The notes beneath the pieces were generated by a model that worked only from the letters and a program-made list of their open reading frames with translations, ran no database searches and was not told the origin of the DNA. The translations under genes and the position numbers were made by a program. Positions 28,329 through 57,319 of a DNA stretch of 64,000 nt are shown here, in pieces. Positions within the stretch are counted from its first letter, which is position 1; each line of letters opens with the position of its first letter. This DNA comes from a virus (lineage: Duplodnaviria > Heunggongvirae > Uroviricota > Caudoviricetes), in the IMG/VR virus record IMGVR_UViG_2737471844_000002, positions 1 through 64,000 of that record, one strand, 5' to 3'.

Positions 28329-28381
28329 TTACTGAAATTGAACGGGCGCTGGTTGAGCGTCTGCGTTGTGGTCTGGGGCAT

Positions 28382-28963: not shown

Positions 28964-29186
28964 GGCGGCTCCCGGGGTGAAGTTCCCGATGGAGGATAAC
29001 GCCCGGAAATACATCACCACGGAAGCGGTGACCGTTGAGAACACCGCTTATTACCGGCGCGCCGTTCAGGACGGTGACCTGATTCTGGTGAAAGATGAGC
29101 CTGAAATCACCGTGACGGCTGAACAGGACGCCGTGCAGGTAAAAGCGAAGGCGAAGAGAGAGAAACAGGTGGATTCCGATGAGTGA
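28944..29186 (+). CDS. Small conserved protein before the tail sheath
   Basis: Position. Confidence 0.45.
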   Translation: MNKMKVKAAPGVKFPMEDNARKYITTEAVTVENTAYYRRAVQDGDLILVKDEPEITVTAEQDAVQVKAKAKREKQVDSDE

Positions 29187-30600
29187 AATTCAGTTTGACA
29201 CCATTTCGGGCGGTATCCGTAAGCCCGGTGTGCATTTTGAGTTTAATACCCGGCTGGCCGTTAACACGCTGCCGGGTAATGAACAGCGTGTTCTGGTGAT
29301 TGGCCCGATGCTGTCAGGCGGCACCGCCACGCCCCTGAATGCCGTTTCCGTGTATTCCGAAGACGAAGCGGATTTGTATTTCGGGGCCGGTTCGCTGGCC
29401 GCTGCAATGGCGCGCGCGGCCATTAATGCCAACAGCTATCTGCAACTGGATGTTATCGGTATTGCAGACAGTGGCGCAGGAAAGGCAGCAACCGGCGCGG
29501 TTACCGTCAACGGTACGGCAATCAGCAGCGGAACACTGTCGGTATGGGTTGCCGGTGAGCAGGTTTCGGTGGATGTGGAAACCGGTGATGGACCGTCGAA
29601 AATCATTCCGGCACTGGTGGAAGCAATGACGCATACGCCCTCGCTTCTGGTGACGGGGGAATACAAATCGGAAGCCTCTCAGCTGACGGTGACCACCCGG
29701 ACCAAAGGAGCCTGGGGGAATGACATCACCCTGTCAGCATCCACCACGGCAGGTGGTCTGACCGTGAGCGCCACGCCGATGGCGAACGGTGAAATGGACC
29801 CGGATATTCAGCCCGCACTGGATGCGGTCTTTGCCGCCGGTCACAACATTCTGATTTGTCCGTTCAGTACCACGCCAGCCCTTGCCGCCCTGAAGCAGCA
29901 TCTGGAGAAAACCGGGAACGCGATGGAACAGCGCGGCGCGATTGGCTGTGTGGGCTGGACGGGCAGTCTCGGAAACGGGATCACCCTGGCAGCAGGTGTG
30001 AACAGCGGGCGCGTGTCCGTCCCCTGGTATCGCGGCTCCGTGAAGCTGCCAGCGGTGCTGGCCGCCATCTACGGCGCTGTGATGGCGGGCGAGGAAGACC
30101 CGGCGCGTCCGCTGAACTCGCTGGCACTGTCCGGACTGGATGTGGTCGCCATGTCACAGCGTGAAAGCCGTAACGAGCAGGAAAACGCCCTGCATAACGG
30201 CCTGACGCCGGTTGAGGTTGGCCCGGGTAACACGGTGCAGATTGTGCGTGCGGTCAGTACATACACGGTTAACGCACAGGGCGTGACTGACGTCTCGTTA
30301 CTGGATATCACGTCCATCAGAACGCTGGACTACACCCGCAAGGCGTGTCGCGAGCGCATCAGCCTTCGCTTCCCGCGCGAAAAACTCAGCACCCGCACTA
30401 TCGCCAAAGTGGAAAGCGAACTGTATGACGTGCTGATCAAGCTGGAGGAAGCGGAGATTCTGGAGAACGTGGAAGCGAACAAGGCAAAGCTGCGCGTTCA
30501 GCGAAACGGGAAAGATGCAAACCGTCTCGACTGCGTGGTTCCGGCGGATGTGGTTAACGGCCTGCATGTGTTTGCCGGCCGCATCGACATGATTTTGTAA
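29179..30600 (+). CDS. Tail sheath protein
   Basis: 473 aa, followed by the tube gene; contractile-tail gene order. Confidence 0.8.
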   Translation: MSEIQFDTISGGIRKPGVHFEFNTRLAVNTLPGNEQRVLVIGPMLSGGTATPLNAVSVYSEDEADLYFGAGSLAAAMARAAINANSYLQLDVIGIADSGAGKAATGAVTVNGTAISSGTLSVWVAGEQVSVDVETGDGPSKIIPALVEAMTHTPSLLVTGEYKSEASQLTVTTRTKGAWGNDITLSASTTAGGLTVSATPMANGEMDPDIQPALDAVFAAGHNILICPFSTTPALAALKQHLEKTGNAMEQRGAIGCVGWTGSLGNGITLAAGVNSGRVSVPWYRGSVKLPAVLAAIYGAVMAGEEDPARPLNSLALSGLDVVAMSQRESRNEQENALHNGLTPVEVGPGNTVQIVRAVSTYTVNAQGVTDVSLLDITSIRTLDYTRKACRERISLRFPREKLSTRTIAKVESELYDVLIKLEEAEILENVEANKAKLRVQRNGKDANRLDCVVPADVVNGLHVFAGRIDMIL

Positions 30601-30612
30601 GGAGCGCGGTAA

Positions 30613-30987
30613 ATGTCCATTAAAGAATATGTCGGCTCGATTGTGCTGGAGGTGGACAGCCAGGAAATCGAGATCACCGACTTTGATGTTCAGATCAACA
30701 CCGGGCGAAAGCTGGTCAAGACCATGAACAAAACCGGCAGGGCCAAAGGCTTTGCCCGTGGCATTGCCACTTACGATATTTCTGTTTCGGCGGTTATCCC
30801 TGATACCAACGAGCCGGACTGGGAAAATCTGGAAGGTGTGAAAATCTCAATTTATCCGCTCAGTAACAGCGGTAAGCGCACCTCCTATCTGGACTGCTTT
30901 ACTGTTGAAGTGGGTGAGAAATACACCGTCGACAGTGAAGCGAAAATTGATATCAAAATGGCTGCACTCAGGAAGGTGACGGGATGA
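30613..30987 (+). CDS. Tail tube protein
   Basis: 124 aa directly after the sheath. Confidence 0.7.
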   Translation: MSIKEYVGSIVLEVDSQEIEITDFDVQINTGRKLVKTMNKTGRAKGFARGIATYDISVSAVIPDTNEPDWENLEGVKISIYPLSNSGKRTSYLDCFTVEVGEKYTVDSEAKIDIKMAALRKVTG

Positions 30988-31367
30988 CTTTGATTAATAC
31001 ACAGACCGGCGAGCTGTCTGATGGCGTGGTGTTTAACGGCACCGTTCATAAAAACTTTGAGCTGCGTCTGCCGGTCATGCGTGATAACGGGCAGGCACTG
31101 GAAGAAACTGAAGAACGCTTTCAGACGGTGGATGGCTTCGCGGCGGATTATTACTACCGCTGTGCGGTGATGGCGGCAACGCTGGTCCGTCTGGGGGATA
31201 TTCCGCAGGAAGAACTGACGGCGGAGCTGTTACACGACAACATGACGCCGGACGATTTTAATATTCTGCTGGCATCACGCAACGTCCTGAAGGTAAAGCG
31301 GAACGGCGGGAATCCCGGCTCGCCGGACTCCGGCTCGCAGTCCTCATCCTCGGGCGCTACGGAATAA
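30984..31367 (+). CDS. Tail assembly chaperone (possible frameshift extension to about 31530)
   Basis: Position between the tube and tape-measure genes. Confidence 0.5.
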   Translation: MTLINTQTGELSDGVVFNGTVHKNFELRLPVMRDNGQALEETEERFQTVDGFAADYYYRCAVMAATLVRLGDIPQEELTAELLHDNMTPDDFNILLASRNVLKVKRNGGNPGSPDSGSQSSSSGATE

Positions 31368-31529
31368 CCGAAGAGCAAATCATGACCATGAGCCGTCCCG
31401 AGTTGGACGGCTGGCTTGCCGCCGTTGACAGGCTGAACGGCGGCGGCTCAGGAAGGAAGGACACCTCACAGACCACCCGCCAGTCATTTAAATCCCTCAG
31501 AAAGAAACGCAGAAAAGGTAAGCAGAAAA

Positions 31530-33812
31530 ATGGCCGGTAATTTCAAAGTTGGCATGACCCTGACTGCGAAGGACGAAGCCTCGCAGGTTCTGGAAAAGGG
31601 ACAAAAACAGGTTATCAAAGCCACCGAAGGTGTAACAAAGGCAACCCGGAAGGCAGGCGCAGAGCAGAAGCGTACCGAGCAGGAAAGCATTAACAGCACG
31701 AAAAAGGCCGCAAAAGAGATACAGCGTGCCGCCCGTGCCCGGGAAACGCTCGGTATTCGTGCAGAGCGTGAGATCCGGCGTGAAATTTATCTGACGGTTG
31801 CCAGTTATAACCGTCTGGCCCGCGCCGGTTTTGAATCTGCGCAGGAGCAGGAGCGCGCCATGCAGGCCACCCGGGAAAAAGCCCGGGCACTCAAGCGCGA
31901 ACTGGATGGCGTTACTCAGGCTCAGATGAAGATGGCGAAAACGCCTGTTATCCCTGAACAGGGACGTTTTGCCCGTGCGGCTGCATTTGGCGGGAATGCC
32001 GTGACAATAGGCGGAGGTATCGCGGCAGGTGCTGCCATTATGGCGCAGCCAGTCAAAAAGCAGATGAGCTACGAACGCCAGCTGGCAATGATGGCCAATA
32101 CCGCCTTCAGTGATGGCGGTCTGGAGGGGCGCAGGGCTGGTCTTGAGCAGATGAAAAGCAGCATCCGTAACGCAGTGACCTATGGTGGCGGCACGAAAGA
32201 GGATGCGGCCGAAACGCTGGATGCCCTGCTGAAAGATGGCGGTATTTCATTTGAAACAGCCAGTAAGTGGCTGCCTGAACTGATGAAATACGCCACGGCT
32301 TCTGGTGCATCAGCGACAGACCTGGCTAATGTGATGCTTAAGGGCAAAAAGACGTTTGGATTCAGGGATGAAGATATTTCCACCGTTCTGAATATGGCAA
32401 TTGCAGCGGGCAAAGAAGGCAGCTTTGAGCTGAGCGACATGGCCCGATGGTTATCTTCGCAGCTGGGGTCAGCGTCAGCTGCGGGGATGAGAGGCAAGGA
32501 TGATTTTGTCAAGATTCTGGCACTGAATGAAGCTGCCGCCATCACGGCGGGAAGCAGTGATGAGGCCGGAAATAACGTGTTTAACCTGCTGGCTAAACTG
32601 ACCAGCCACGATATTGAAACAGCGGCAAAGAGCATTGATTACAACGGTAAAGGAATTGATTTTTCCGGCACGCTGGTTCAGGCGCGTGAACATGGACTTG
32701 ATCCGATAGATGCGCTGTCCAGCCTGATAGACAAAATCGTTGCCAGCGATAAACGCTTTCAGGAGTTGCAAAAGAAACTGGCCTCCGCCCGGGATAAGGG
32801 CGAGCAGACAGCTGTTTATGATTCGATGGCAAAACTCCTTGAAGGCTTTGGTGTCGGGAAACTGGTTGCAGACCAACAGGCGTTAAAAGCGTTGCTGGCT
32901 TACCGTAACAACCCGGAATACCGGAAAAAGGTTGAAGACGCGATTAATCAGCAGCGCACCCTGCCGGAAGGCCAGCGCGCGGGTGATGTGGATTTTAACT
33001 TCATATCCGGCCTCAATGACTTTAAAACCGAACAAGCTAAAAACACGTTTGAATTTTCACAAATGGACAGCGTGAAAAAGCTGGCTGATGCGTCCGGTAC
33101 TGTGGCCGATGCCATAAGCTGGGCGGGTGAAAAATTTCCGGGGCTGACCACAGCAGTGGTGGGTGCCACGACCGCCATTGAAGCGATGACCGCAGCGGCT
33201 CTGACATGGGCCGGGATCAAAATCCTGACCGGGGGTAAACCTGGTGGCAAGGCTGGCGAGGTTGTCGGTGATGTCATTGAAAACACGGTCAAAAAAGGCA
33301 AAGGATTTAAAATCCCCGGCATTGCCGGTAGCCTGCTTTCTTTCGGTGGCACCGTTACGGCACTGGCCACCGCAACCAGCCCGGAAGAAGACGCCGCCGT
33401 CGAAGGAAGCGAGGAGCGCTGGAAAAATATACGGGCTAAATATCCTCAGTGGCTGATTGATGCTGCCCGTGAAAAATATCAGCCGTGGTGGCAGTTTGGC
33501 GAAGGTTACTCAACAGAAAACGAGAAATGGATCCAGCAGTATCTTGACGAACTGAAAAAAACCGGGGTTATCGCCGGTGATTCTCTGCCGACACCAGAAC
33601 AAGTCCGACAGCAAGCCGGAATGGCAGCGTCTGAAACGGCATCAAAGCAACCCAGACGCATCACCCAGCCGGAATACCTCACGCACTGGGGACCACCTGC
33701 CAGCCCCATTAATTTCACCACACAACTGGTGCTCGATGGTCAGGTCATAGCGGAGGCAGTGAACAAATACAACCTTCAGGACGGCAACAGAGGCACGGGA
33801 GGAACTTACTGA
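31530..33812 (+). CDS. Tail tape measure protein
   Basis: 760 aa, Ala/Gly-rich and coiled-coil. Confidence 0.8.
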   Translation: MAGNFKVGMTLTAKDEASQVLEKGQKQVIKATEGVTKATRKAGAEQKRTEQESINSTKKAAKEIQRAARARETLGIRAEREIRREIYLTVASYNRLARAGFESAQEQERAMQATREKARALKRELDGVTQAQMKMAKTPVIPEQGRFARAAAFGGNAVTIGGGIAAGAAIMAQPVKKQMSYERQLAMMANTAFSDGGLEGRRAGLEQMKSSIRNAVTYGGGTKEDAAETLDALLKDGGISFETASKWLPELMKYATASGASATDLANVMLKGKKTFGFRDEDISTVLNMAIAAGKEGSFELSDMARWLSSQLGSASAAGMRGKDDFVKILALNEAAAITAGSSDEAGNNVFNLLAKLTSHDIETAAKSIDYNGKGIDFSGTLVQAREHGLDPIDALSSLIDKIVASDKRFQELQKKLASARDKGEQTAVYDSMAKLLEGFGVGKLVADQQALKALLAYRNNPEYRKKVEDAINQQRTLPEGQRAGDVDFNFISGLNDFKTEQAKNTFEFSQMDSVKKLADASGTVADAISWAGEKFPGLTTAVVGATTAIEAMTAAALTWAGIKILTGGKPGGKAGEVVGDVIENTVKKGKGFKIPGIAGSLLSFGGTVTALATATSPEEDAAVEGSEERWKNIRAKYPQWLIDAAREKYQPWWQFGEGYSTENEKWIQQYLDELKKTGVIAGDSLPTPEQVRQQAGMAASETASKQPRRITQPEYLTHWGPPASPINFTTQLVLDGQVIAEAVNKYNLQDGNRGTGGTY

Positions 33813-35161
33813 TGGGCTGGGCTGAAAACCTGCAAAACGCCTCCTTTCGTGGCGTGCAGTTTGATGTGCTGAACACGGATGAACAAATCAGCCGCGACCA
33901 TGCGGTCTATGAATACCCGTTTGTTGACGGGGCGGATTTGCACGACCTCGGACGCAAGGCGCGACCGTTCCGCATGACGGCGTTCCTGTGGGGAGAGTAT
34001 TACGAATATAAACTTGAAAAGCTGATCGCCGCCCTGGACGAAGGCGGTGCTGGTGAGCTGATTCACCCGGTTTATGGCTCCGTACCATCGGTGATTGTGA
34101 CCGGCTACAGTATTCGCCATGACGCAGAAAGCCCGGACAGCTGCACCATCGACATGAGTTTTCTGGAGAACCGCACCGGCAGCGCGTTGTTCAGCACCCC
34201 GTTACCGGAGCTGTTTGCACAGCAGTTATTTGAAGAACTGGATAAGTTACTGGCACAGTTAAGCGAATTATTTGACGCTGTTACGGCCCCATTAAAGACC
34301 ATTAACAGCGTGATTAAAAAAATCCAGACGGTACGCGCCACGCTGGTGAATACCCTGCTGACGTTCAAAAGCGATTTTCTCTCATCCATCGACAATATGA
34401 TGTCGCTGGCCAGCGAACCAGGAAAGTTCATCGGCGGGCTGGCAGAGGTGCTGGAAATCCACACGTCAGATGTCGGGCACGCGGTGCCGGTGCTGGAGCG
34501 TACTGATTCCGCCACCACGACCGGACTGACCGGGGAAGACAGCGTCGCCAGTTCTGCGACAGTGATGACCTGCTGGAATGAGGTGATGGCAGATATGGAT
34601 GAGCTGGTCGCGCTGCCGGTCGCACTGGTCAGCGGTGATAAAACGCCGTCTGTGGCACTTCCGCCGGATGCGTCCGTGGAAGACGTGCAGGACGTGAAAG
34701 CGGCTTATGCGGTTTTGGCAGCCTCAGAGCTGGCCAGCGTGGCGACGGCGATACTGTCAGATGAGGCCCAGTCAGAGCCGCTTATACCGGCGGATATCGG
34801 GCGACTGGTCGGGGATGTGCGCACCCGCTTACAAGCAGCCATCACGCTGTTCCGTGAACGCTATGAAGGCGAACGCGAACGGATAACCGAAACCGCATCA
34901 CCGCTGGGGCTGATGTACCCGGAAATCATTCAGAGCATGAAGAACGTGGCGGCATCCGTGCAGGATGTCGGCCTGCTGGTTCTGTCTCGCCGCCCACCAC
35001 TGACGCAGAAACAGGTGCAGGCGGACAGTTGCCTGCTGTTGCTGGCGTGGCAGTGGTACGGTGATTACAGCCGTGCGGCAGAGCTGCAACGTCTGAACCC
35101 GCAGCTGCGTGACCCGAACAACATAACTGCCGGGATGGTGATTAATGCCTATGCAAAATAA
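33812..35161 (+). CDS. DNA circularisation protein (Mu N-like)
   Basis: Position after the tape measure. Confidence 0.65.
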   Translation: MGWAENLQNASFRGVQFDVLNTDEQISRDHAVYEYPFVDGADLHDLGRKARPFRMTAFLWGEYYEYKLEKLIAALDEGGAGELIHPVYGSVPSVIVTGYSIRHDAESPDSCTIDMSFLENRTGSALFSTPLPELFAQQLFEELDKLLAQLSELFDAVTAPLKTINSVIKKIQTVRATLVNTLLTFKSDFLSSIDNMMSLASEPGKFIGGLAEVLEIHTSDVGHAVPVLERTDSATTTGLTGEDSVASSATVMTCWNEVMADMDELVALPVALVSGDKTPSVALPPDASVEDVQDVKAAYAVLAASELASVATAILSDEAQSEPLIPADIGRLVGDVRTRLQAAITLFRERYEGERERITETASPLGLMYPEIIQSMKNVAASVQDVGLLVLSRRPPLTQKQVQADSCLLLLAWQWYGDYSRAAELQRLNPQLRDPNNITAGMVINAYAK

Positions 35162-36356
35162 CGATGACAAAATCAGCCTGGTCATTGCCGGAAGGTCGCA
35201 TTCTGACTGGAGCAGTTATCGTATTGACAGCGATTTCCTGAAAGCCGCCGACGGCTGGCAGCTTCAGCTGGGACTGCCTGAAAAGGTGTTCCCGGCGGAT
35301 ATCGTCCGGGGTGCGCCGGTCCGTTTGCAGGTGGGAGACGAGACGGTCCTCAGTGGTCGCGTGGACAGCGTGCGCCGCAGTGTATCCCGTCAGAGCTGCA
35401 CGCTGACCCTGTCCGGGCGTGATGATGCCGCCATCCTGGTGGACTGTGCCGCACCGGTGTTCAGCGCCAATCAGCTGACGCTGGACGAGGTCATCGACAG
35501 GATTGTCAGACCGCTGGGGATACAGCGCATCCGTATTCAGGCGTCCGGTGTGTCACGTAATGACAAGGTCGTTATAGAGCCGGGGATGCGTGCGTGGGAT
35601 GCACTGGCTAAAGCTGCCGCCGGTCGCGGCTTATGGCCGTGGTTTGAGCCTGACGGTACGCTGGTTGTGGGTGGCCCTGACTACACCACCACGCCGGTGG
35701 ATACACTGATTATGAAGCTGGACGGCACCGGGAACAACTTGATGGAGCTGGACGATACCCGGTCCATTAACGGCTGTTTCTCCGAGCTGACGGTGCTGGC
35801 CCAGAGCCACGCCCGCCGCGCAGACAGCAAGAAACAGGTGGCCGTGGTGCCGCTGGATATCTGGAACGAGGACGGCAGCGTGCGCACATTATCCGGGCAG
35901 GACAGCGGTAATACAGGCAGTGGTCAGACAGGCATTCATAACATGAAAGCCGTGGCCACCGACCCCACCGTGGATTATTACCGCCCGCAGATAATCACCC
36001 AGGGCGACACCAGTAACATGGAGCAGGTGAACTGGCGCGCAAAAAAAATGATGAGTGATGCCCGCCTGTCGGGGCTGGATATCGTCGCACTGGTTGCAGG
36101 CCATCGCACGGCGGATGGTGTCCTGTGGCAGCCCGGCCAGCGTGTGCGGATTGTCAGCGAACCCCACGGCATCGATGCCATTTTTTTTCTGATGGGCCGC
36201 GAGTTCAGCGGAGGCCGGAGCGGGCAGACAACCCGGCTCCGCTTTAAGGAGGATGGCGTGTGGATACCTGATGCCTTCCCGCGCGAGAAGAAACGCCATC
36301 ACCGCAGGGGCAAAAAGAAAAAAGAGGTCGCCATTGTTAAGGTCTGGGAGAAATGA
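35145..36356 (+). CDS. Baseplate hub protein (Mu P / P2 D-like)
   Basis: Position and size. Confidence 0.65.
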   Translation: MPMQNNDDKISLVIAGRSHSDWSSYRIDSDFLKAADGWQLQLGLPEKVFPADIVRGAPVRLQVGDETVLSGRVDSVRRSVSRQSCTLTLSGRDDAAILVDCAAPVFSANQLTLDEVIDRIVRPLGIQRIRIQASGVSRNDKVVIEPGMRAWDALAKAAAGRGLWPWFEPDGTLVVGGPDYTTTPVDTLIMKLDGTGNNLMELDDTRSINGCFSELTVLAQSHARRADSKKQVAVVPLDIWNEDGSVRTLSGQDSGNTGSGQTGIHNMKAVATDPTVDYYRPQIITQGDTSNMEQVNWRAKKMMSDARLSGLDIVALVAGHRTADGVLWQPGQRVRIVSEPHGIDAIFFLMGREFSGGRSGQTTRLRFKEDGVWIPDAFPREKKRHHRRGKKKKEVAIVKVWEK

Positions 36357-37006
36357 TGTGGGACAAGGTTAATCAGCGCATACAGCAGGCACTGGCCGCC
36401 GTTCGCCAGGCATTCAGGGTGGTGACCGGTACGGTGGACAGTTCGACCAAAGTACAGCTACTTCAGCTGAACGGGCTGGCAGGCGAACAGCTGGACGGTG
36501 CGGAGTATTTTCAGCATTACGGCCTCACCACATCCCCGCCGCCCGGCTCGATGGGTATTGCCGTTCCGCTGAATGGTAATACCTCCCATACCGTCGTCGT
36601 GGCCACAGAGCACGGCGCATATCGCCTGACGGAACTGAAACCCGGCGAGGTGGCGCTGTATACCGACGAAGGCGCGAAAATCGTACTGAAGCGCGGGCGG
36701 GTTATTGAGCATGAATGTGATGTTTATCGCGTGAAATGCAAACGCTATGAGGTTGAGGCAGAGGAGAACGCCGCATTCACGACACCGTTACTGACAGTCA
36801 GCGATAAGCTGACTGTGGAAGGTAAAATCACCGGCAACGGTGGCATGGCCATCCGTGGAGGCAAGAAATACGCTGCCACCTTTGAAGGCAATATCAACCA
36901 TGTGGGCGGTGTGATTACCTCCGTTGACGTCACCATTAATGGCGTTAAAATCGGAACACACAAACACGATACCCCTCACGGCATATCCGGCCTGCCGCAT
37001 AATTAA
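36353..37006 (+). CDS. Baseplate spike protein (V-like)
   Basis: Position; resembles the P2-like V protein at 59666..60247 in its C-terminal part. Confidence 0.6.
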   Translation: MMWDKVNQRIQQALAAVRQAFRVVTGTVDSSTKVQLLQLNGLAGEQLDGAEYFQHYGLTTSPPPGSMGIAVPLNGNTSHTVVVATEHGAYRLTELKPGEVALYTDEGAKIVLKRGRVIEHECDVYRVKCKRYEVEAEENAAFTTPLLTVSDKLTVEGKITGNGGMAIRGGKKYAATFEGNINHVGGVITSVDVTINGVKIGTHKHDTPHGISGLPHN

Positions 37007-37059
37007 GTGCTGAACACCCTCACCTGATTCTGACCTGTCCATGCTGCCAGACTGGCGGC

Positions 37060-37410
37060 ATGGACCAGACGATTTCACCTGCAACCGGCGACTACGAACG
37101 CCGCCGGATTTACACACTCCATAACGCGGTTTATCTGCGACTGGCGACACCGCTTGGCAGTTACTGGGCGGATGCGTCGCTGGGGTCACGCCTGCACGAG
37201 CTGAAGCGGGAAAAAGACGTTCCCCGTGTTCACAGACTGGCGGCGCAGTATGCCAGCCAGGCACTTCAGCCACTGCTCGATGACGGGCGGGCAAAATCCA
37301 TTACCGTTGACACGAAAGCGGGCCAGCGCGGCTGGCTGTTGCTGTTAATCACCGTCACGGATAACGCGGGCACACCGCAGACGTTTGAACACCCTGTGAG
37401 GATTATGTAA
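37060..37410 (+). CDS. Baseplate wedge protein (W / gp25-like)
   Basis: Position and size. Confidence 0.55.
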   Translation: MDQTISPATGDYERRRIYTLHNAVYLRLATPLGSYWADASLGSRLHELKREKDVPRVHRLAAQYASQALQPLLDDGRAKSITVDTKAGQRGWLLLLITVTDNAGTPQTFEHPVRIM

Positions 37411-38489
37411 TGCCGTTTCCTGTTCCGGGCGTTGCTGAAAACACAGAACGCCAGCTACGTGATATCGCTAACGCCCTGCCGGGAGAAACCATAGACACCG
37501 GCGCTGACAGCGATTACCGCATTCGTGCAAATGCTGTATCCGGCGTGGCGGAGGGGCTTTTTATGCATCAGGGATGGATCCTCCGTCAGGTGTTTCCTGA
37601 CACGGCAGACCCTGAATATCTGGAGCTGCACTGTCGCACGCGCAATGTTTTTCGTAAAAAAGCAACGGCCTCATCCGGTCCGGTGGTGATTACCGGCACA
37701 CCCGGTAAGACGCTGCCAGCCGGTGCGGAAATTCGTGGTGAAGGTGTCAGCGTGGCCACCACAGCAGACTGCACCATCGGTGATGAAGGCAGCGCAGAGG
37801 TGACGGTAAAAAGCACCGCTACGGGGGCACAGACGAACGCATCCGCGACGCAGACGGCAACGCTGGTCAGTCCGCCGGAAGGCATCAACAGCACGGTGAC
37901 GATTAAATCCCTGACCGGCGGAACGGACAGGGAAAGCGACGCTGACCTGCTGGCGCGTTATCTGGATATTCTGCGCAGGCCGCCCGCTGGCGGTAATAAA
38001 TATGATTACAAACGCTGGGCGCTGGAGGTGGATGGCGTTACGTCTGCATATGTGGAGCCATTGCGCAGAGGGAAAGGTACTGTTGATGTGGCCATTACGT
38101 CAGCCAATGACATCCCCTCGCAGGAACTGATTAATGCCGTGCTGGCACATATTGAGGAAGTCCGCCCGGTGACAGCGAAGGACACGATGGTACTGGCTCC
38201 GACGAAAAAAGCCGTTGATTTCGTTGTCCGGGTAAAAACCAGCGGCCTGACCGTTGAGCAGATAAAACCGCAGATAACTGGCGTTATCACGGATTTCATG
38301 AACCGACTGGCGCCGGGGCAGGAATTAATTATTTCACAACTGGAAACCCAGATTTCACTCATTTCCGGTGTGAGTGACAGAAAAATAATCACGCCTGACG
38401 GGAATGTAAAAGCCGTGATTAATGCGTCAACGTGGGAATGGTTGCGTCCGGGGGATATTGATATTCAGCCATTTCCCCGGGAGGGTTAA
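37410..38489 (+). CDS. Baseplate J-like protein
   Basis: Position and size. Confidence 0.7.
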   Translation: MPFPVPGVAENTERQLRDIANALPGETIDTGADSDYRIRANAVSGVAEGLFMHQGWILRQVFPDTADPEYLELHCRTRNVFRKKATASSGPVVITGTPGKTLPAGAEIRGEGVSVATTADCTIGDEGSAEVTVKSTATGAQTNASATQTATLVSPPEGINSTVTIKSLTGGTDRESDADLLARYLDILRRPPAGGNKYDYKRWALEVDGVTSAYVEPLRRGKGTVDVAITSANDIPSQELINAVLAHIEEVRPVTAKDTMVLAPTKKAVDFVVRVKTSGLTVEQIKPQITGVITDFMNRLAPGQELIISQLETQISLISGVSDRKIITPDGNVKAVINASTWEWLRPGDIDIQPFPREG

Positions 38490-38492
38490 TTC

Positions 38493-39065
38493 GTGAATAC
38501 AGTCGATTTATTCCGCGCCATGCTGCCGCCGGTCAGTTATGACCTGAACGGGAAATATATTTCCGCGGAGCTGACAGCCGAGGCTAACGTCATGGAGGCC
38601 GTGAAGGCCTCAGCGGCGCGCGTTCTGGCACAAATCACCCCGTTGCAGGCATCGATGACGCTGTCCGACTGGGAGCGCGTGTACGGTGTTGTCCCCCGTG
38701 AAGGGGCAACCCAACAGGAGCGGCGGCAGAACATCCTGGTAAAAATGGCGGCAACGGGCGGGCTGTCCATTCCCTATTTTAAAAATCTGGCCGCAAGCCT
38801 GGGATACACCATAACGATAACCGAACCACGAGCCTTTCGCACCGGGGTAAATCGTTGCGGTGACCGTCTGTTTATCCCTGAAATGCGCTGGGTATGGCAG
38901 GTCAATGTTATTGGTGCAAAAACGCCGGTATACCGTTTCAGAACGGGCGCATCTGCAACAGGTGAGCCGCTGACGGCCTTTGGTGAATCCATTTTAGAAA
39001 ATACCTTTAAAGACCTTAAACCGGCTTTTACAGACTGTTATTTCACGTATGAGGATAAGCAGTAA
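38493..39065 (+). CDS. Tail protein I-like
   Basis: Position and size. Confidence 0.6.
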
Positions 39066-39994
39066 TGCAGAATTTAATTCCTCCGGTGAATACGCCGGAT
39101 CAATTGTTTCACGATGGTGACCCCACTCAGGGCATTGAGGGCACTATTGTTTATGCTGAACACATGAATAATCAGCAGGGAGCCATTCGTGACCTGCAAC
39201 AGGAAATTATTAATGTGCTCCGTGCGGCTGATATATCACCGGACCCGAAGAAACAAAATCAACTGCTTGATGCTATATCGCAATATGTCGGGAAAAAAGT
39301 TCCTGACGCATCATTAACGAAGAAGGGCATCGTTCAGCTCAGTAGCGCAACAGACAGTGATTCAGAAACGGAAGCAGCCACACCAAAGGCAGTAAAATCA
39401 CTGGCGGAAAAAATAACAGAATTGCAGGGAGTGGCTTTACCGGTAGGTACCCCAATACCGTGGCCGTCTGATTCAGTGCCACCCGGCTATGCCTTAATGC
39501 AGGGGCAGAGCTTTGATAAAGGCTCTTACCCTAAACTTGCAGCTGCCTACCCATCCGGGATTATCCCGGATATGCGGGGCTGGACAATTAAGGGTAAGCC
39601 TGCCAGTGGTCGTGCTGTATTGTCTCAGGAGCAGGACGGCATTAAATCACACGCCCACAGTGCCAGTGCATCCAGTACGGATTTGGGGACGAAAACCACA
39701 TCGTCGTTTGACTACGGAACTAAATCAACAAATAACACAGGTGGTCATAATCACGGTGTTGGTGAAAATGTTTCTGTCAGTGCCGGCAGTGGCAAAACAG
39801 TAAATATGAGTACCGGCACCGTAAATCTTTACACCAAATCTGCTGGCGCTCATGCGCACACTGTCGGCATTGGTGCTCATGTGCACACTGTTGCTATTGG
39901 TTCACACGGACACACCGTCACTGTTAACGCTACTGGTAACGCAGAAAACACCGTCAAAAACATCGCATTTAACTATATTGTGAGGCTTGCATAA
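39065..39994 (+). CDS. Tail fibre protein
   Basis: [21 protein letters not shown] collar motif; Gly/Thr/His-rich C-terminus; segment shared with the P2-like H gene. Confidence 0.8.
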
Positions 39995-40569
39995 TGACTT
40001 TTAAAATGAGCGATAAAGCACGGACCATGCGTGTATTTAATTTTCTTGAAGATACAAAAGAATTTATCGGCAGTGGTGACGCTTATATACCGCCTCATAC
40101 CGGATTACCCGCAAACTGTACGGATATTGTACCGCCGGAAATTCCCGAAGGTTTTACGGCAATGTTTGATACTGCTGACAATTCATGGCGTCTGGTAGAA
40201 GACCATCGGGGGGAAACAGTTTATTCAACGGAAACCGGAAATGCAGTCCCGATATCTGAACTGGGGGAACTTCCTGAAAATGTCACATTTATTGCACCAG
40301 ACGGAGAATACCAGCGCTGGGATGGCAGTCAGTGGGTGACGGATGAAGAGGCGAAGCGTGATGCGCTGATTAATCAGGCGGCAGAAAAGAAAACCAGCCT
40401 GCTGAAACAGACTGGAGAACAAATCGCAATCTTACAGGATGCTGTTGATTTTGGTGAAGCAACACCAGAGGAACAGGAGCAACTGACAGCCCTCAGAAAA
40501 TTACGAATAAAGTTAAATCGTATTCAACCGGAAAATGCACCAGATATCGACTGGTCAGACTTTGAATAA
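39994..40569 (+). CDS. Tail fibre assembly chaperone
   Basis: Directly follows the fibre gene (ATGA overlap). Confidence 0.7.
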   Translation: MTFKMSDKARTMRVFNFLEDTKEFIGSGDAYIPPHTGLPANCTDIVPPEIPEGFTAMFDTADNSWRLVEDHRGETVYSTETGNAVPISELGELPENVTFIAPDGEYQRWDGSQWVTDEEAKRDALINQAAEKKTSLLKQTGEQIAILQDAVDFGEATPEEQEQLTALRKLRIKLNRIQPENAPDIDWSDFE

Positions 40570-40614
40570 ATTCCACAGCCGCCAGCAGGCGGCTTTTTAT
40601 CATTCAGAGGCTCT

Positions 40615-42039
40615 ATGTCTGTATTAATTTCAGGGGCGCTGATTAATGGCGCTGGCGTTCCGATGGCGGAATGCAAAATTTATTTAGATGCACTGGTTAA
40701 TACCAGTGAAGTGGTCACTGAGTCATTTGCGGTTATTGAAACCGATGCGGCGGGACAGTATGCCTTTGAAGCACAAAAAGGCAAATACACCGTACACATC
40801 AAGCAAAAGAACGGCCCCAAGTGCTGCGTGGGTGACATTTCGGTTTACGACGACTCAAAGCCCGGCACGCTGAACGACTTTCTGACTGCCCTTGATGAAA
40901 GCGATTTAAAGCCGGATGTAGTGAAACGCTTTGAGGAACTGGCGCAACAGGCACAGCAGAGCGCGGAAGCCGCCGCTGGCAGCGAACAACAGGCAGGACA
41001 ACACGCCACTGATGCACAGCAGATTAAGGCCGACTGTCAGGCGCTGGCGAAAGACGTACAGCAGAACGCCGACGCGGTTGCGGAGGGTAAACAACAGGTC
41101 GAAAATCTGGTCTCACAGGTTGAGAATGCCGCCGAGGAGGTAAAAAAGGACGCTGAAGCTGCTAAACAGGCCGCATCTGATGCAGAGCATGTCAGGGAGG
41201 ATATTGACACCGCGTTATCTGCGACACTGAAAACGGCGAATCGTTTATCAGAGCTGGCTGATGAAGGTGAAGAGGCTCAGCAGGAATCCCGTGATAATCT
41301 TGGACTGAAAAGCGCTGCCACAATGACGCCACAGAGCGACATTCGTGACCGGACTGAAGGTCGTCTGGCGACACCTGGCGCATTTGGTTTTGGGCATATT
41401 TTTTTGCCCGCAGAGCGGATCCGTTTTAACACAGAGGATGATTTTCTGTCCTGGGTAAGGAATGCGACGCCGGGTGAATATTTTGTTGAGGGTGGCAGTA
41501 AAATCATATCCGGAGGTGTGTTGTTTAACGGGGTGGTCAGCATCCGGTGGGTTGAGGCACGCAATAATCCACCGGAACCGCGATATACATCAAAGGCCAT
41601 TATTTTCTACGGTATCAATGGCGATGTTTATTACAGCCGCTACTGGACAACAGGTAATGGTTATCTGACTGGCTGGGAAAATCTGAAAATTACCTCACAG
41701 GACATTATCTCTCTTCTGTCCGGTATTGCTCCCGGTACCACGGACGGCTGGTACGGTGCAGGCAGTCTTGTACTGGCGGCTTATAACGGTAAGGGAGACG
41801 CAGACACCGACCGCCGGATAAAACGCGGTTACAGCTATCCGGGGTCACGCCTGAGCGCGGTTGAATTTATGTGTCACGGCACGACCGGTAGCGGGGTTGG
41901 ATATAACGGCAGCGTTTCCGTATATGTGCGGAGTTCTGGTGGTGGTATGCCGGGGTCATATCGGGCACTGTCAGGTGATGGGCTCGGGTCTGCCGGGTCA
42001 GCCAGTGTCATGATTGGTTTGTTCATACGTATTGCGTAG
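40615..42039 (+). CDS. Second tail fibre-like protein
   Basis: Long Ala/Gln-rich coiled coil then Gly-rich C-terminal domain; followed by a second chaperone. Confidence 0.55.
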   Translation: MSVLISGALINGAGVPMAECKIYLDALVNTSEVVTESFAVIETDAAGQYAFEAQKGKYTVHIKQKNGPKCCVGDISVYDDSKPGTLNDFLTALDESDLKPDVVKRFEELAQQAQQSAEAAAGSEQQAGQHATDAQQIKADCQALAKDVQQNADAVAEGKQQVENLVSQVENAAEEVKKDAEAAKQAASDAEHVREDIDTALSATLKTANRLSELADEGEEAQQESRDNLGLKSAATMTPQSDIRDRTEGRLATPGAFGFGHIFLPAERIRFNTEDDFLSWVRNATPGEYFVEGGSKIISGGVLFNGVVSIRWVEARNNPPEPRYTSKAIIFYGINGDVYYSRYWTTGNGYLTGWENLKITSQDIISLLSGIAPGTTDGWYGAGSLVLAAYNGKGDADTDRRIKRGYSYPGSRLSAVEFMCHGTTGSGVGYNGSVSVYVRSSGGGMPGSYRALSGDGLGSAGSASVMIGLFIRIA

Positions 42040-42046
42040 GTGTTTT

Positions 42047-42613
42047 ATGGAAATAAAACGCATCGAAAATGCGCGTTATCTTGAAAATGGCGCGATTGAC
42101 TGCGGGGTGTTGTTTGATGGCATGGATGAACCGGTTCCGTATACGGCAACTGCCACGGATACAGCAGAGACAGGGCAGCGAGTCTGGCAGGAGCTGCAAA
42201 GTGGGAGATGGGGAGAAATAACGCCGTTCACCGTCACGCCAGAGATGCTGGAAGCAGCAAAAGCAGCCAAACGCCGGGAAATTGAAGCATGGCGCACAGA
42301 ACAGGAGGCGCAGCCATTCATTTTTGAATGGAACGGCCATAGCTGGAACGGGGGACCGGATTCTATGGCCCGTCTTTACCCGGTGGTGATGTCAGCAAAA
42401 TCAGTCACGGCACGGAAATCTATGGTATGGGGTGATGCGGAAAATCAGCAGGTAAAGTTGTCAATGCAACAACTGGATGAACTGCTTACTGCAATGGTTC
42501 AGGCGCAGGTCGATCGCAATGACGAGATTTATCGCCGTCAGCGGGAGATGAAGGAAACACTGGCGGGGCTGGATGACCTGAACACCATCAGAAGTCTGCC
42601 CATCAGTGAATAA
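42047..42613 (+). CDS. Second tail fibre assembly chaperone
   Basis: Position after the second fibre gene. Confidence 0.65.
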   Translation: MEIKRIENARYLENGAIDCGVLFDGMDEPVPYTATATDTAETGQRVWQELQSGRWGEITPFTVTPEMLEAAKAAKRREIEAWRTEQEAQPFIFEWNGHSWNGGPDSMARLYPVVMSAKSVTARKSMVWGDAENQQVKLSMQQLDELLTAMVQAQVDRNDEIYRRQREMKETLAGLDDLNTIRSLPISE

Positions 42614-42649
42614 AAACGTAAGTGGTCAAATAAAGTGCTGTATCACCTT

Positions 42650-42735
42650 ATTTTGCGCTTTATTCTGGATTTTTTTTATTATGTCAACCGTTCAAAATAA
42701 AGCGCTAAATAGTCCAGAAAAAATCGCGAAGTTAC
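42650..42735. repeat. Right end of the Mu-like element with inverted copy of the terminal motif (AGTCCAGAA at 42711..42719)
   Basis: Reverse complement of the right terminus matches the left terminus in register at 17 of 26 positions when the right terminus is taken as 42736. Confidence 0.5.
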
Positions 42736-42740
42736 ACACG
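42736..42740. repeat. Target-site duplication ACACG, right copy
   Basis: Identical to 5862..5866. Confidence 0.6.
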
Positions 42741-45291
42741 CGGCGCGGTGGATGAAGCCATGGCCTCGCTGCGCCTGCTGCCGTCCTATCTGCGCGATCC
42801 GCTTATTCGCCACCTCTCCTTCCTTCGCAAAAAACAGGAAGCCGATCGCCGGAAAGGCAAAAAGAGCTGGCAGGCGGAACGCTATGCACGCGGAACCCTG
42901 CGCAAAATATTCGAACGTCTGGATCGCACTGACGGACGCTGGCTGACACCGGGTTATCGCTCCCTTGCCGGACGCGAACGCCTGGACGATTTGCTTTACC
43001 TGCCGCAGCTCAACAAACACCAGATACAGACGTTGGCCACCATGACGGCGGCGATGTTCAGCAGCACCTTCGAAAAGCTCTGCGATGGCTTTGGCGCCAG
43101 AGATGGCGAGCTGACCATGGATGTAATGTTGAAGGCTTACCGGATGCTGGCTCGTATCGCATTACGCCTGCACATCATGCCGCCACATTACGAAGCCCTG
43201 AACAAGAGCGAACCGGATACGGAACTGCTGCCGGGCGCAATCCTTCGCCTGACCTGTGCGGACTGGTGGAAACGCAAACTGTGGCTGTTACGTTGCGAGT
43301 GGAGAGAAGAACAACTCCGCGCCGCCTGTCTGGTTTCCAGAAAAACATCGCCTTATCTGAGCCAGGACGCGTTAAGCGAGTTTCGCGCACAGCGCGAGAA
43401 AACACGCGATTTCCTGAAAAGTTTCATGCTGGAAAACGAAGACGGGTTCACGATTGATCTCGAGACAGTGTATTACGCGGGAGTAAGTAACCCGGTTCAC
43501 CGTAAGGCAGAAATGATGGCCACCATGAAGGGGCTGGAACTTCTGGCCGAAGCCCGTGGTGACAAAGCGGTGTTTCTGACTGTCACCTGCCCGTCAAAAT
43601 ACCACGCAACAACGGAGAACGGTCATCCGAATCCCAAATGGAACGGGGCCACCATGCGCGACTCCAGCGATTACCTGGTTAACACGTTTTTTGCGGCGGT
43701 CCGCAAGAAACTGAACCGCGACGGCCTGCGCTGGTATGGCATCCGCACGGTGGAGCCTCACCATGACGGCACCGTGCACTGGCATATGATGGTCTTTGCC
43801 CATCCGGAAGAAATCGACACCATTGTGTCCCACACCCGCGATATTGCCATTCAGGAAGATCGTCACGAGCTGGGCGATGATATTACTCCGCGCTTTAAGG
43901 CGGAGTATGTCGACGGCTCAAAAGGCACGCCAACCAGCTACATCGCCACCTACATCGGAAAAAACCTGGACAGCCGCGCCGTGGATGGCATCGCCCCGAA
44001 AACAGGCAAACCACGCGTTGACCACGAAACCGGAAAATCAATGGCCGAGAGCGTGGAGCGCGCCATCGGCTGGGCGCGCCTTCACCGGGTCCGCCAGTTC
44101 CAGTTCTTTGGCATCCCCTCCCGTCAGGTGTGGCGTGAACTGCGCCGCCTTGCCAGCCAGATGGCACGCAACCCGGAAGGCCCGCAACGGCTGAAGGACG
44201 ACGCAATGGATGCGGTACTCGCTGCCGCTGATGCCGGGTGTTTTGCCTCCTACATTGAAAAACAGGGTGGCGTACTTGTTCCACGCAAGGACTACCTGAT
44301 TCGCACCGCCTACGACCTCGCAGATGAGCTGAACGATTACGGCGAACAGAGCGTACAGATTTACGGGATCTGGTCACCACTCATCGGGGAATCCTCCCGT
44401 GTGTGCACGCACCCGGATAACTGGAAGCTGGTAAGACGTAAACCGGAAGCGGAAGACAGCGCCCGCGAAAATTGTTTTGACCTTCAGGGCGGCCCTGCCG
44501 CCCCTTGGACTCGTGGCAATAACTGTCCCCGTGTACAGGAAACGGACAACAACGGGACAGAACAGCCGGAAGAACGGCCAGCACCGTGGCCGCAGCTTCC
44601 TGACGGCGTTGATGTGGATGAATGGATGCGCTCACTGAAACGGCACGAACGCCGGGCGCTGATGCGTTCGCTGCGTGACAAACAGGCCAAAAACAGCAGT
44701 GATGAAATGCAGAACTGGACACAGAGCCGCAAACAGCCACAGCCTTTGCCTGATAAACACGAATTACTCGCTAAAGAATGGCGGGAGTCTGCCGAATCTC
44801 TCGGCCTGCATATCGGTGAACAGCAGATGCAGCACCTGTTACGGGGCGGCAGCCTGTACGTTGACGGCAGCATCATTGCACCGCAGGGATTTGAAATTGT
44901 ACGCAAACCGGATACCCGCCCGGACAGCCGAATCACGCAGCTCTGGCAGCGCCTGAGCCGTAATCACGGCGTAAGCAGCACGGAGATCCGCCATAACCCG
45001 GTCGCCAGCTATCTGGCACAGCTCGGGGCATCAGACCCCGAAGCCGCCGCACGCCTGGCATCCACACTTCAGCAGGACCAGAACACCATGAAAACACCCG
45101 TTACCGTGCTTTCTGACATGCTGCGCGCCATTCGTGACGCAGAGCACGCACAGAGAATCAGTGAAACCACTGAACACGCCCGCCGCAAAGCAGACCTGCT
45201 GCGGGGTAGCCTGACCAGTGGCAACAAAAAACAGACAGAAACGGGATTCACAAATCCCGCAAATGAGCAAAAAACGCGCCGCGATATATGA
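42741..45291 (+). pseudogene. A: Replication initiator gene A (P2 gpA-like rolling-circle endonuclease), 3-prime part separated from its 5-prime end by the Mu-like insert
   Basis: TVTCPSKYH and VEPHHDGTVHWHMMVF motifs match my recollection of P2 gpA; frame continuous with 5610..5866. Confidence 0.8.
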
Positions 45292-45367
45292 AGCGCGCAC
45301 AAAACAGGCGAAAGCGGGATTTAAAAATCCCGTAAACGGTTAATTAACCAACATAAGGAAAATCGAC

Positions 45368-46327
45368 ATGAAAATTTGTATCGACGACGGCTCCACCAAC
45401 ATCAAGCTGGCATGGACTGAAAACGGCGAACGCCGCAACGCCATCAGCCCGAACAGCTTCAAGTCGGAATGGTCTGCGCCGTTCGGTGGCTCGCAGCCTG
45501 CGAACTACATGCTTGATGGCGTGCGCTATGGTTTTGATCCGGTCAGCGATCGCTTTGTCCAGACGACCGACACGCAATACCAGTACAGCGATGTGAATGT
45601 CATTGCCATTCATCACGCGCTGGTCAAATCAGGCATCACGCCACAGGAAGTGGATGTTGTTGTCACCCTGCCACTGAGCGAATATTTCGACACTAACGCC
45701 CAGCCGGACATGGCCAACATCAACCGCAAAAAAGCGAACGTTATGCGCCCGGTGGAGTACCAGAACGGTGAGGCATTCACTATCCGTAACGTGCGGGTTA
45801 TGCCTGAATCCATTCCGGCTGGCTTTAAGGCACTGGCTGACATGAGTCCGTTTGAATCCCTGCTGATTGTGGATTTGGGCGGAACCACGCTGGATGTGGC
45901 AAAGGTTCAGGGGCAACTGGCAGGTATCAGCCAGGTGTTTTGCGATCCACACGTAGGCGTTTCTCTGATGGCCGATGCCGTACTGTCGGTGATGGCCACT
46001 AACGGTATGCGCACCAGTCACCACATAGCCAATACCATTATCGAACATCGCCATGATGAAGCCTGGCTGCGCCAGCACATCCACAATGACGCGCATTACG
46101 CCAGCCTGATGGCGGTTATTCGTGAAAAGGAAGAAACACTGAAACAACGTGTTATCCGCGCGCTGGCGGTTTTTTCGGGTTACGGGCGGGTGATGGTTGT
46201 CGGTGGAGGGGCGGAGATTGTGGCACCCGCTATCCGCGAAGCCTGCGGAGTTAATGCGACTTTCATCGCGGACGGGGTGCCACAGTTTGCTCTGGTTAAT
46301 GGGCTGTACGCAATGGACAAGGAGTAA
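45368..46327 (+). CDS. parM: ParM/StbA-like actin-type partition ATPase
   Basis: IDDGSTNIKL...ISPNSFK.EW...QYSDVNVIAIHHAL..SG....EVD...TLPL matches ParM/StbA as I recall it. Confidence 0.75.
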   Translation: MKICIDDGSTNIKLAWTENGERRNAISPNSFKSEWSAPFGGSQPANYMLDGVRYGFDPVSDRFVQTTDTQYQYSDVNVIAIHHALVKSGITPQEVDVVVTLPLSEYFDTNAQPDMANINRKKANVMRPVEYQNGEAFTIRNVRVMPESIPAGFKALADMSPFESLLIVDLGGTTLDVAKVQGQLAGISQVFCDPHVGVSLMADAVLSVMATNGMRTSHHIANTIIEHRHDEAWLRQHIHNDAHYASLMAVIREKEETLKQRVIRALAVFSGYGRVMVVGGGAEIVAPAIREACGVNATFIADGVPQFALVNGLYAMDKE

Positions 46328-46331
46328 ACCA

Positions 46332-46643
46332 ATGACGACTCCAACCAGACGGATAAGTTTCTATCTGAAGCCCACCGCCGTCAAGAACGAAGGAGAAGCA
46401 TGCGCCTGGCTGGACAGCCTTACACCAGAAGCCCGCAAAAGCGGCCAACGCGTGGCTTTTCTGGCCGGGCTGGCACTTCTGAAAATGAATCCGGCAGAGG
46501 CTTACCGACTGGCTGCATGGGCTGATGATGAGGTGTTATCAGTGACACAAACCAAGACAGAACGCCCCGCGTCACAGCCAGTATCAACCGCACAGATAAC
46601 CAGTCAGATGGCCGGAAATATCCGGGCGTTATTTCCTGAATAA
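46332..46643 (+). CDS. ParR/StbB-like partition adaptor candidate
   Basis: Small protein 4 nt after the parM-like gene. Confidence 0.4.
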   Translation: MTTPTRRISFYLKPTAVKNEGEACAWLDSLTPEARKSGQRVAFLAGLALLKMNPAEAYRLAAWADDEVLSVTQTKTERPASQPVSTAQITSQMAGNIRALFPE

Positions 46644-47021
46644 CATCAGGGCGTATTCGCCCTGCCACCAATCCCATAACATAAAGAACGGGGTGCAAAT
46701 CACTATGCACCCCGTTCCAATACAAACCATCAGAAGATCTACACATCTTTCTCAAATGGCCAAGTAATCGAGCTGGTTCAGGAATAAGCAGGCTGCCAAC
46801 ACAAGTGAAGGAGATAAAACTGTAGAACTGATCAATCGTTGGAAACAAGTATTGACAGTATGTTCGAGTAACCCAACTGGATAGATTTTATGCTGATTAT
46901 CCATACAGTAAAAAAGTGAGGATACTCTTTGAATTACGCCAGCAAGAGTGGTAACATTAGTCAATGATTTTCATTAATGTAGTTACCAGCTTACACAAGC
47001 TGATGTTTTATTGGGGGTTTT

Positions 47022-48104
47022 ATGGTAAACGTGAGGGAGGATGAACTTTTCAAACTCATCGAGCAAGGCATCAAAGGCAACGCAAATGCATTTACACTCC
47101 TATGCAGAAAGATGATTAACAACATCCGTAAAAATGATGAGGCTTTAGCTTCTAAGCTGGCTTCGTTAGTTGCTGAGGGAACAGTATTACGTGGGGCATC
47201 TAGTAAGGCTCCTATGCCTGTGGATGGAGACTCCAGACGAAACCTTTTGCAGGAAACATCTGTCAACGCAATTGTTGAAGAACCTGTATGGAATACGGAT
47301 ATCTCAAAGAAGCTGGAGTCAATTGTTAACGAAAGAGAGAATGCGGTTTCTTTGTTCAAAGCTGGTCTTGAACCTGTGAAGACGGTTTTACTTTCTGGCC
47401 CGCCAGGCGTAGGCAAAACAATGTCCGCACATTGGCTTGCTGCAAAGTTAAATTTACCTCTTTTAACATTGGATCTCTCATCTGTAATGAGTTCTCTTTT
47501 GGGAAAAACAGGTAATAATATTAAATCCGTTATGGATTATGCCAAAGAGAAACCATGTGTCCTTTTGCTTGATGAATTTGATGCTGTTGCAAAAAGACGT
47601 GATGATGACAGGGACGTTGGAGAATTAAAACGTTTAGTTACTGTACTCCTACAGACCATAGATGAGTGGCCAGCGACCTCGCTTCTTGTTGCTGCGACTA
47701 ATCACCCTGATATCTTAGATCCGGCTGTTTGGCGTCGATTTGAGCACATCCTTAAATTTAATATGCCATCAGTAGAACTGATAGATAGATATTTAGTCAA
47801 TCATAATATTGAACCTGAACTATCTAAAAAACTTGCACCATTATTAGATGGCATGTCCTTTGCCATCATTAACCGTATTTTGAATTTCTCCAAAAAGAAT
47901 GAGGTACTTAGAAATATTCCATTTGAAAGCTCATTAATAGAAGCCGTAATTACGGAGAGGGTTTCATTGGATGAGTTTAGCGATAATGATCTCAATATAA
48001 TTAAATATCATTTTGACGGTTTTTCAAATAGGAAGATAGCTGAATTAGTTGGTGTTTCACATCCAACAATCGCGAATAAATTACAAAAGTGGGGGATTAA
48101 ATGA
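47022..48104 (+). CDS. AAA+ ATPase with C-terminal HTH (IetA-like)
   Basis: Walker A GPPGVGKT, Walker B LLLDEFD, sensor/Arg-finger ATNHPDILDPAVWRRF, C-terminal NRKIAELVGVSHPTIANKL; AT-rich. Confidence 0.85.
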   Translation: MVNVREDELFKLIEQGIKGNANAFTLLCRKMINNIRKNDEALASKLASLVAEGTVLRGASSKAPMPVDGDSRRNLLQETSVNAIVEEPVWNTDISKKLESIVNERENAVSLFKAGLEPVKTVLLSGPPGVGKTMSAHWLAAKLNLPLLTLDLSSVMSSLLGKTGNNIKSVMDYAKEKPCVLLLDEFDAVAKRRDDDRDVGELKRLVTVLLQTIDEWPATSLLVAATNHPDILDPAVWRRFEHILKFNMPSVELIDRYLVNHNIEPELSKKLAPLLDGMSFAIINRILNFSKKNEVLRNIPFESSLIEAVITERVSLDEFSDNDLNIIKYHFDGFSNRKIAELVGVSHPTIANKLQKWGIK

Positions 48105-50305: not shown

Positions 50306-50312
50306 TTTTTAT

Positions 50313-50334
50313 GGCCGCGAAAGCGGCCTTTTTT
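50313..50334 (+). terminator. Rho-independent terminator after the peptidase gene
   Basis: GGCCGCGAAAGCGGCC hairpin followed by TTTTTT. Confidence 0.7.
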
Positions 50335-57317: not shown

Positions 57318-57319
57318 CA

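Follow-up and report, generated by a model that had tools for sequence, protein, structure and literature searches.

Two tail-fibre genes in the window (the whole stretch of 64,000 nucleotides analysed here), one in a Mu-like prophage and the other gene H of a P2-like prophage related to phage P88, very probably end in the same tip cassette, a widespread and exchangeable module of the T4 gp37/lambda Stf type, and very probably owe their likeness to shared ancestry of that cassette and not to exchange between the two prophages. The segment common to both genes consists of the Pfam Collar domain (PF07484) and the initial strand of the stem in a fibre tip of T4 gp37 type. Coordinates of the genes, their domains and the two prophages are collected in Table 1.

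Two fibre genes share a collar and a proximal stem strand

Comparison of positions 39000-42700 with 62000-64000 using blastn yielded three same-strand matches and otherwise noise only. The principal match pairs 39436-39724 with 63539-63828 at 82.4% identity over 290 nt with one gap (E = 4e-81). This confirms the similarity of about 300 bp between the Mu-like fibre gene and H described in the initial annotation, whose coordinates were right to approximately 10-20 nt. The two shorter matches connect 39323-39397 with 62680-62754 (74.7% identity, E = 7e-9) and 39323-39396 with 62548-62621 (74.3% identity, E = 2e-8). The two fibre genes are carried by a single E. coli chromosome, point the same way and agree in codon phase.

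At the protein level, residues 509-603 of H correspond to residues 126-220 of the Mu-like fibre nearly unchanged, with 73 of 82 residues identical in the first ungapped block. Directly after the shared block H carries a 10-residue duplication, beyond which the two proteins diverge. Past 39725 and 63829 the sequence is rich in Gly, Thr, Ser and His and aligns poorly between the two genes.

Table 1 Positions of the two prophages, their fibre genes and the shared segments within the window.
Feature	Position	Strand	Basis and remarks
Mu-like transposable prophage, 36.9 kb	5867..42736	+	TG...CA termini, MuA/MuB domains, Mu gp48; inserted into the P88-like prophage
Mu-like prophage tail-fibre gene, 309 aa	39065..39994	+	ORF; Mu-type N-terminus, one fibre repeat, gp37/Stf-type tip
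Phage tail fibre repeat PF03406, residues 83-114	39311..39406	+	Pfam; the 'collar motif' of the initial annotation
Sub-block A, Collar domain, fibre residues 126-175	39440..39589	+	PF07484; partner 63544-63693
Sub-block B, proximal stem strand with the first HxH box, residues 176-220	39590..39724	+	Partner 63694-63828
Variable middle of the tip, about residues 221-262	39725..39850	+	Poor alignment to H, lambda-type Stf and 2XGF; counterpart of distal stem plus receptor tip in T4 gp37 (limits after PMC6957217 and PMC9659904)
Conserved C-terminal stem strand, three HxH boxes	39851..39994	+	Near-identical to the C-termini of PhiR29_1 Stf, P1-like fibre and T4 gp37
Tail-fibre assembly chaperone, Tfa/gp38-like	39994..40569	+	PF02413, E = 5.5e-33
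Rest of the P88-like prophage; starts with the 3' portion of the split gene for the replication endonuclease and reaches H	42737..64000	+	P88 match; left part is 1-5866
H tail-fibre gene of the P88-like (P2-like) prophage	62020..63999	+	660 codons visible, continues beyond the window; mosaic
Two tandem PF03406 fibre repeats in H	62536..62790	+	Pfam, blastn; end of the second repeat approximate
Shared-block partner in H	63544..63828	+	Collar 63544-63693; first HxH box and proximal stem 63694-63828

The fibre proteins differ in their N-termini and probably share a tip type

Domains and related prophages support the view that both genes encode tail fibres and that they belong to a Mu-like and a P2-like prophage, respectively. 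Residues 1-117 of the Mu-like fibre share 37% identity with the fibre of the Mu-like phage SuMu. They are followed by a Collar domain at residues 128-175 (PF07484, E = 1e-10), and a single PF03406 repeat scores 59.5 bits against a gathering cut-off of 22. Compared by sequence with solved structures, the protein matches the receptor-binding tip of T4 gp37 (PDB 2XGF, E = 1e-74) over residues 124-309. The match consists of two conserved stretches, residues 124-226 and approximately 262-309, flanking a divergent middle, and the same flank-variable-flank pattern appears when the Mu-like fibre is compared with lambdoid Stf and with the P1-like fibre. Five HxH motifs are present in the 309 residues, at positions 196, 228, 263, 272 and 281. 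The Tfa encoded downstream is 56% identical to lambdoid and P1-like Tfa.

H begins with the P2-type N-terminal domain PF12571 and continues with two PF03406 repeats (133.2 bits across two stretches) and a Collar domain at residues 511-558 (PF07484, E = 2.5e-11). Its visible part holds three HxH motifs, at residues 579, 621 and 655. By analogy with its 95%-identical P1-like relative, H would carry the full tip cassette, of which the N-terminal flank alone lies inside the window. A 'collar motif' had previously been pointed out in both genes. It does recur, with one copy in the Mu-like fibre and two in H, but its name is wrong: it is the PF03406 fibre repeat. The true Collar forms the first half of the 290-nt block.

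Beyond the chaperone gene the Mu-like prophage carries a second fibre cassette in tandem on the same strand (40615-42613), coding for a 474-aa protein with PF08400 ('prophage tail fibre N-terminal') and then a DUF4376 protein. Identity of this cassette is 95% with a related Mu-like prophage and 77% with phage phiP27. The 120 bp that separate the last Mu-like gene from the right end of the prophage encode no invertase, and the region corresponding to the invertase of P88 falls past the end of the window. Since an invertase does not follow the second cassette, both Mu-like fibre sets may be made together.

A Mu-like prophage is nested within a P88-like prophage

MuA and MuB are encoded at 7238-10192 (PF09299, PF02316 and rve; AAA_22). 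Mu-type tail and baseplate genes are represented by Mu gp48 (Pfam) and, under the PGAP names used in a related prophage, by a gpT head protein, a DNA circularization protein, gp46 and gp47. The ends of the element read TGTGGGG...GTTACA, and at each end the motif TTCTGGACT is found at positions 18-26. Insertions of Mu are typically flanked by 5 bp of duplicated target, and the target site is non-specific. Here 4 bp (CACG) are duplicated without ambiguity, as are 4 bp (CCCT) in E. coli STEC316; the fifth base in the window, an A, could be part of the duplication or of the terminal CA (5862-5866 / 42736-42741). At the corresponding fifth base STEC316 has G on the left and A on the right (STEC316 locus L003 6712-6721; also compared, locus L007 3921-3927).

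Window positions 2354-5866 match P88 2089-6213, and the match resumes from window position 42737 with P88 from 6210, a position inside the P88 replication endonuclease gene (5957-8779). The same P88-like prophage is also found, uninterrupted, in E. coli JNEC-KY180, between ihfA and btuC, with the replication gene intact and hence with an empty site; matches to it have identities of 99.8% (window 1-5866) and 99.0%. The interruption of the P88 match at 6210 together with this empty site indicates that the Mu-like prophage, whose junctions lie at 5862-5870 and 42731-42741, splits the replication gene of the P88-like prophage, and judging from the disrupted gene the outer prophage is probably replication-defective. 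The two phages had been described as co-resident. Both are indeed present, but they are nested and not just neighbours, which had been missed. Among the complete E. coli genomes of the collection, none reads across the right-hand junction of Mu-like and P88-like DNA, and exact searches for both junctions among species-representative genomes gave no match.

The remainder of the outer prophage is 97.1% identical to P88 across 76% of 42500-64000, and it is collinear with P88 through the genes for replication, head, lysis and baseplate; the P88 group belongs to the Peduoviridae, Xuanwuvirus. Between its partition genes and its portal gene, the P88-like prophage carries as cargo a 3.7-kb stretch (46685-50359) that is missing from the otherwise near-identical JNEC-KY180 prophage. 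Two genes in this stretch (47022-50305) match the anti-phage defence pair IetA (AAA ATPase, E = 4e-89) and IetS (subtilase-like, E = 7e-41).

For the Mu-like backbone, no named phage reaches at least 85% nucleotide identity over more than 1% of its length. A search of positions 5867-30000 against 50,697 deposited phage genomes returned no close relative, just fragments of at most 350 nt. Chromosomes of STEC, porcine and bovine E. coli isolates carry related prophages, which cover about half of 30000-50000 at 93-95% identity.

The similarity is old and each copy has closer relatives elsewhere

Across the first 82 ungapped codons, 37 of the 48 nucleotide differences fall at third positions, with a pS of 0.64, a dS of about 1.4 and a dN/dS of about 0.04. 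The two halves of the block differ in depth. Sub-block A is 74% identical between the genes with a saturated pS of 0.79 and a pN of 0.084, whereas sub-block B is 92% identical with a pS of 0.32. The same contrast is obtained when the Mu-like copy is compared with lambda and with PhiR29_1, where sub-block B has 90-93% identity; on these alignments, it is a property of the whole family and not specific to this pair.

Over a core of 246 nt, identity is 99.6% between the Mu-like copy and a Mu-like prophage that sits at another chromosomal site, the aga locus, in STEC316. It is 95-97% between the H copy and a P1-like and a lambdoid fibre, and 80% between the two copies in the window. In STEC316, the closest relative of the 309-aa fibre gene (STEC316 locus 3100-4035) is annotated as two partial pseudogene fragments. 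The tip module is present in 3866 of 5426 complete E. coli genomes and in 335 phage records, including lambda, T4-like, P1-like and Fels-1 phages, usually as two conserved pieces around a gap.

That the similarity arose by chance or from the composition of Gly/Thr/Ser-rich fibre sequence has practically no likelihood. Sequence of this composition, also rich in His, does lie beyond 39725 and 63829 and aligns poorly, but the block itself gives an E value of 4e-81, differs mostly at third codon positions and extends over PF07484 in both proteins (E = 1e-10 and 2.5e-11), an ordinary globular domain with a solved homologue. It is thus not confined to a short low-complexity Gly/Thr region, and we ruled this reading out. 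A recent direct exchange, with gene conversion or homologous recombination in this host passing the segment from one co-resident prophage to the other, would agree with the location of both genes on one chromosome, with their matching orientation and codon phase and with the 92% identity of sub-block B, which includes an exact run of 32 nt. We nevertheless regard it as very unlikely, because overall identity is 82%, synonymous sites in the collar are saturated and relatives of each copy are found at 95-99.6% in other phages and strains. The high identity of sub-block B does not distinguish this pair either, as the Mu-like copy reaches 90-93% there against lambda or PhiR29_1 and the pattern is family-wide. 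A more recent recombination event may have involved sub-block B in one of the lineages; its pS of 0.32 is well below that of sub-block A, yet the Mu-like copy gives the same value against every other allele tested.

The saturated synonymous sites of the collar and the closer relatives elsewhere argue that the two prophages drew separately on a common pool. An exchange between the co-resident phages, as the initial annotation had implied, has no support, given a collar pS of 0.79 and relatives at 99.6% and 95-97% compared with 80% for the pair itself. As for the direction of transfer, comparison with the fibres of related phages gives the same picture, in that neither prophage was the donor to the other.

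Mosaic breakpoints lie beside the fibre repeat

Relative to the Mu-like prophage of E. coli C5, homology extends up to 39396, is lost and returns from 40603. The unit that is swapped in C5 (39397-40602) corresponds exactly to the tip and the chaperone, and the break coincides with the 3' end of the fibre repeat. H is likewise a mosaic. It is 94% identical to P88 until 62772, the match ending within 62766-62772, a few bases past the second fibre repeat. Positions 62795-63186 match D108 S', P1/P7 S and the alternative fibre segment that P88 carries in inverted orientation, at 88-90% identity; positions 62660-63828 are collinear with lambdoid Stf at 86.6%; and the last 460 nt (63541-64000) are 95.4% identical to a P1-like fibre. 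The alternative segment of P88 that matches the middle of H (88%) lies on the minus strand at P88 26468-26859. Relative to P88, the constant part of H is here joined to the other variable segment.

A search for a crossover repeat at the P88 breakpoint in H found none, and neither fibre gene contains a gix/cix-type core. Invertase crossover sites were therefore rejected as the source of the breakpoints. The fibre-repeat motif, which the P1 S record M81956.1 annotates as 'repeated element a', sits at segment junctions here as in the known mosaic fibre genes. The position of the breakpoints beside the fibre repeat, as far as the alignments go, agrees with the old view that short conserved motifs are joints between fibre modules.

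The shared segment is a marginal substrate for recombination

As a consequence of the nesting, two alleles of the fibre cassette lie in direct orientation on one molecule, 24.1 kb apart. The initial annotation had described the repeat as a substrate for homologous recombination. This holds marginally: the block is 82% identical overall, and a single exact run of 32 nt, the longest in the entire block, lies within the 135 nt of sub-block B, while the longest run inside the first 82 codons is 17 nt. These values were judged against published limits, according to which RecA needs at least 31-34 nt for pairing and Red-beta 23-27 nt, a divergence of 4% is enough to depress recombination on E. coli plasmids 10,000-fold, and phage recombinases tolerate a divergence of 12-17% (PMC3945230).

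A single crossover between the direct repeats would yield an in-frame hybrid fibre but would also delete 24,104 bp, and with them the Mu-like chaperone gene, the second fibre cassette, the right transposition end and most of the P88-like genome. One crossover would thus destroy both prophages. For an exchange to be useful, another crossover would have to occur, either in the chaperone gene or in the C-terminal flank, both of which lie past the end of the window in the case of H.

We consider it very improbable that the similarity, although old, is active now and that the direct repeats drive deletions or hybrid fibre genes in this strain. The 32-nt run is within or above the minimal pairing lengths of RecA and Red-beta, and phage recombinases accept a divergence of 12-17% (PMC3945230). 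The copies are in frame, so that a crossover would give an in-frame chimera. On the other hand, this run is the sole one of such length and is confined to a 135-nt stretch, recombination on E. coli plasmids is reduced 10,000-fold at 4% divergence (PMC3945230), neither phage would survive the 24,104-bp deletion, and the second flank required for a clean cassette swap is beyond the window. There is equally little chance of a double crossover, through the conserved DNA of sub-block B and the equivalent flank past the window, by which a presumably active Mu-like phage would acquire tip and chaperone from the probably defective P2-like one. If this happened, the locus would be a natural and testable case of host-range switching through capture from a defective prophage.

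A probable common tip cassette on lineage-specific attachment domains

Under the reading that we prefer, shared ancestry of a common cassette, the module would begin with a trimerising Collar and an HxH stem strand, continue into a variable insert that forms the receptor-contacting tip, return through a conserved stem strand and be followed by the gene for a Tfa/gp38-like chaperone. Each lineage would join this cassette to its own baseplate-attachment N-terminus, Mu-type in one case and the P2 H N-terminal domain in the other, and the junction would run through the conserved 'phage tail fibre repeat'. The scaffold would derive from the common gene pool of enterobacterial phages and would be held by purifying selection. 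By analogy with the characterized relatives, the tips are predicted to form trimers and bind iron and to depend on their chaperones, with receptor specificity set by the insert.

The initial annotation had also suggested that the two phages share receptor-binding modules. The two fibre genes do contain homologous coding segments, but the shared part is scaffold, made up of the collar and the proximal stem, and the proteins diverge at the region matching T4 tip residues 932-959. Receptor contact in T4 lies just past the shared block, where the fibres diverge. On the same analogy, the Mu-like fibre and H probably bind different receptors.

Beyond annotation the feature has little significance. 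It is one more instance, in nested prophages, of the long-known, textbook mosaicism of fibre modules, and it makes a clean worked example of modular fibre evolution: attachment domains are lineage-specific, a conserved repeat serves as the joint, the tip cassette is common, and the conserved part is scaffold and not the determinant of specificity. The prophages are probably without a common receptor, and the repeat should not be taken as a sign of recent exchange between phages in this strain.

Comparison with known systems

The closest parallels are the T4 gp37 tip and lambda Stf-Tfa, which have the same succession of Collar, HxH stem, variable insert and conserved C-terminal stem, followed by a gp38/Tfa-type chaperone. 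In T4 gp37, residues 932-959 form the receptor tip as an insertion into the stem (PMC6957217). The T4/lambda family of receptor-binding proteins comprises more than 200 phages, in which conserved flanks (gp37 812-931 and 966-1026) surround a specificity insert and a gp38-like chaperone always follows (PMC9659904; Magaziner & Salmond 2022), and for stf genes an ancient transfer between phages that are otherwise unrelated has been documented (PMC3945230, with its references 71-73). In size and layout the 309-aa fibre is like PhiNP ORF6 (282 aa), the studied short member of this family (PMC9659904).

Protein identity between tips is 69-71%, with 141 of 205 positions identical to the P1-like fibre and 152 of 214 to lambdoid Stf. 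In contrast to T4 gp37, where the variable insert has approximately 65 aa, the insert here has approximately 36 aa and resembles no compared sequence. A further difference from the T4/lambda family lies in the N-terminal attachment parts, which are Mu-type and P2-type here. Judged by their sequences, the Mu-like fibre fits this receptor-binding-protein family on each testable feature and H does so as far as it is visible in the window.

Tetart et al. (1998) are said to have found that adhesin specificity in T-even phages is swapped by recombination between conserved His-box motifs. Correspondingly, sub-block B, which flanks the variable tip and includes the initial HxH box, shows markedly stronger conservation of synonymous sites than the collar does in all alleles compared. 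Such conservation would be expected of a recurrent crossover site, of which one flank is visible for H. Mosaic tail-fibre genes were reportedly described in P2 (H), Mu (S/S'), P1 (S), lambda (stf) and T-even phages by Haggard-Ljungquist, Halling & Calendar (1992) and by Sandmeier (1994). There as here, fibre segments are common to unrelated phages, and nothing essential differs in the pair of genes described here.
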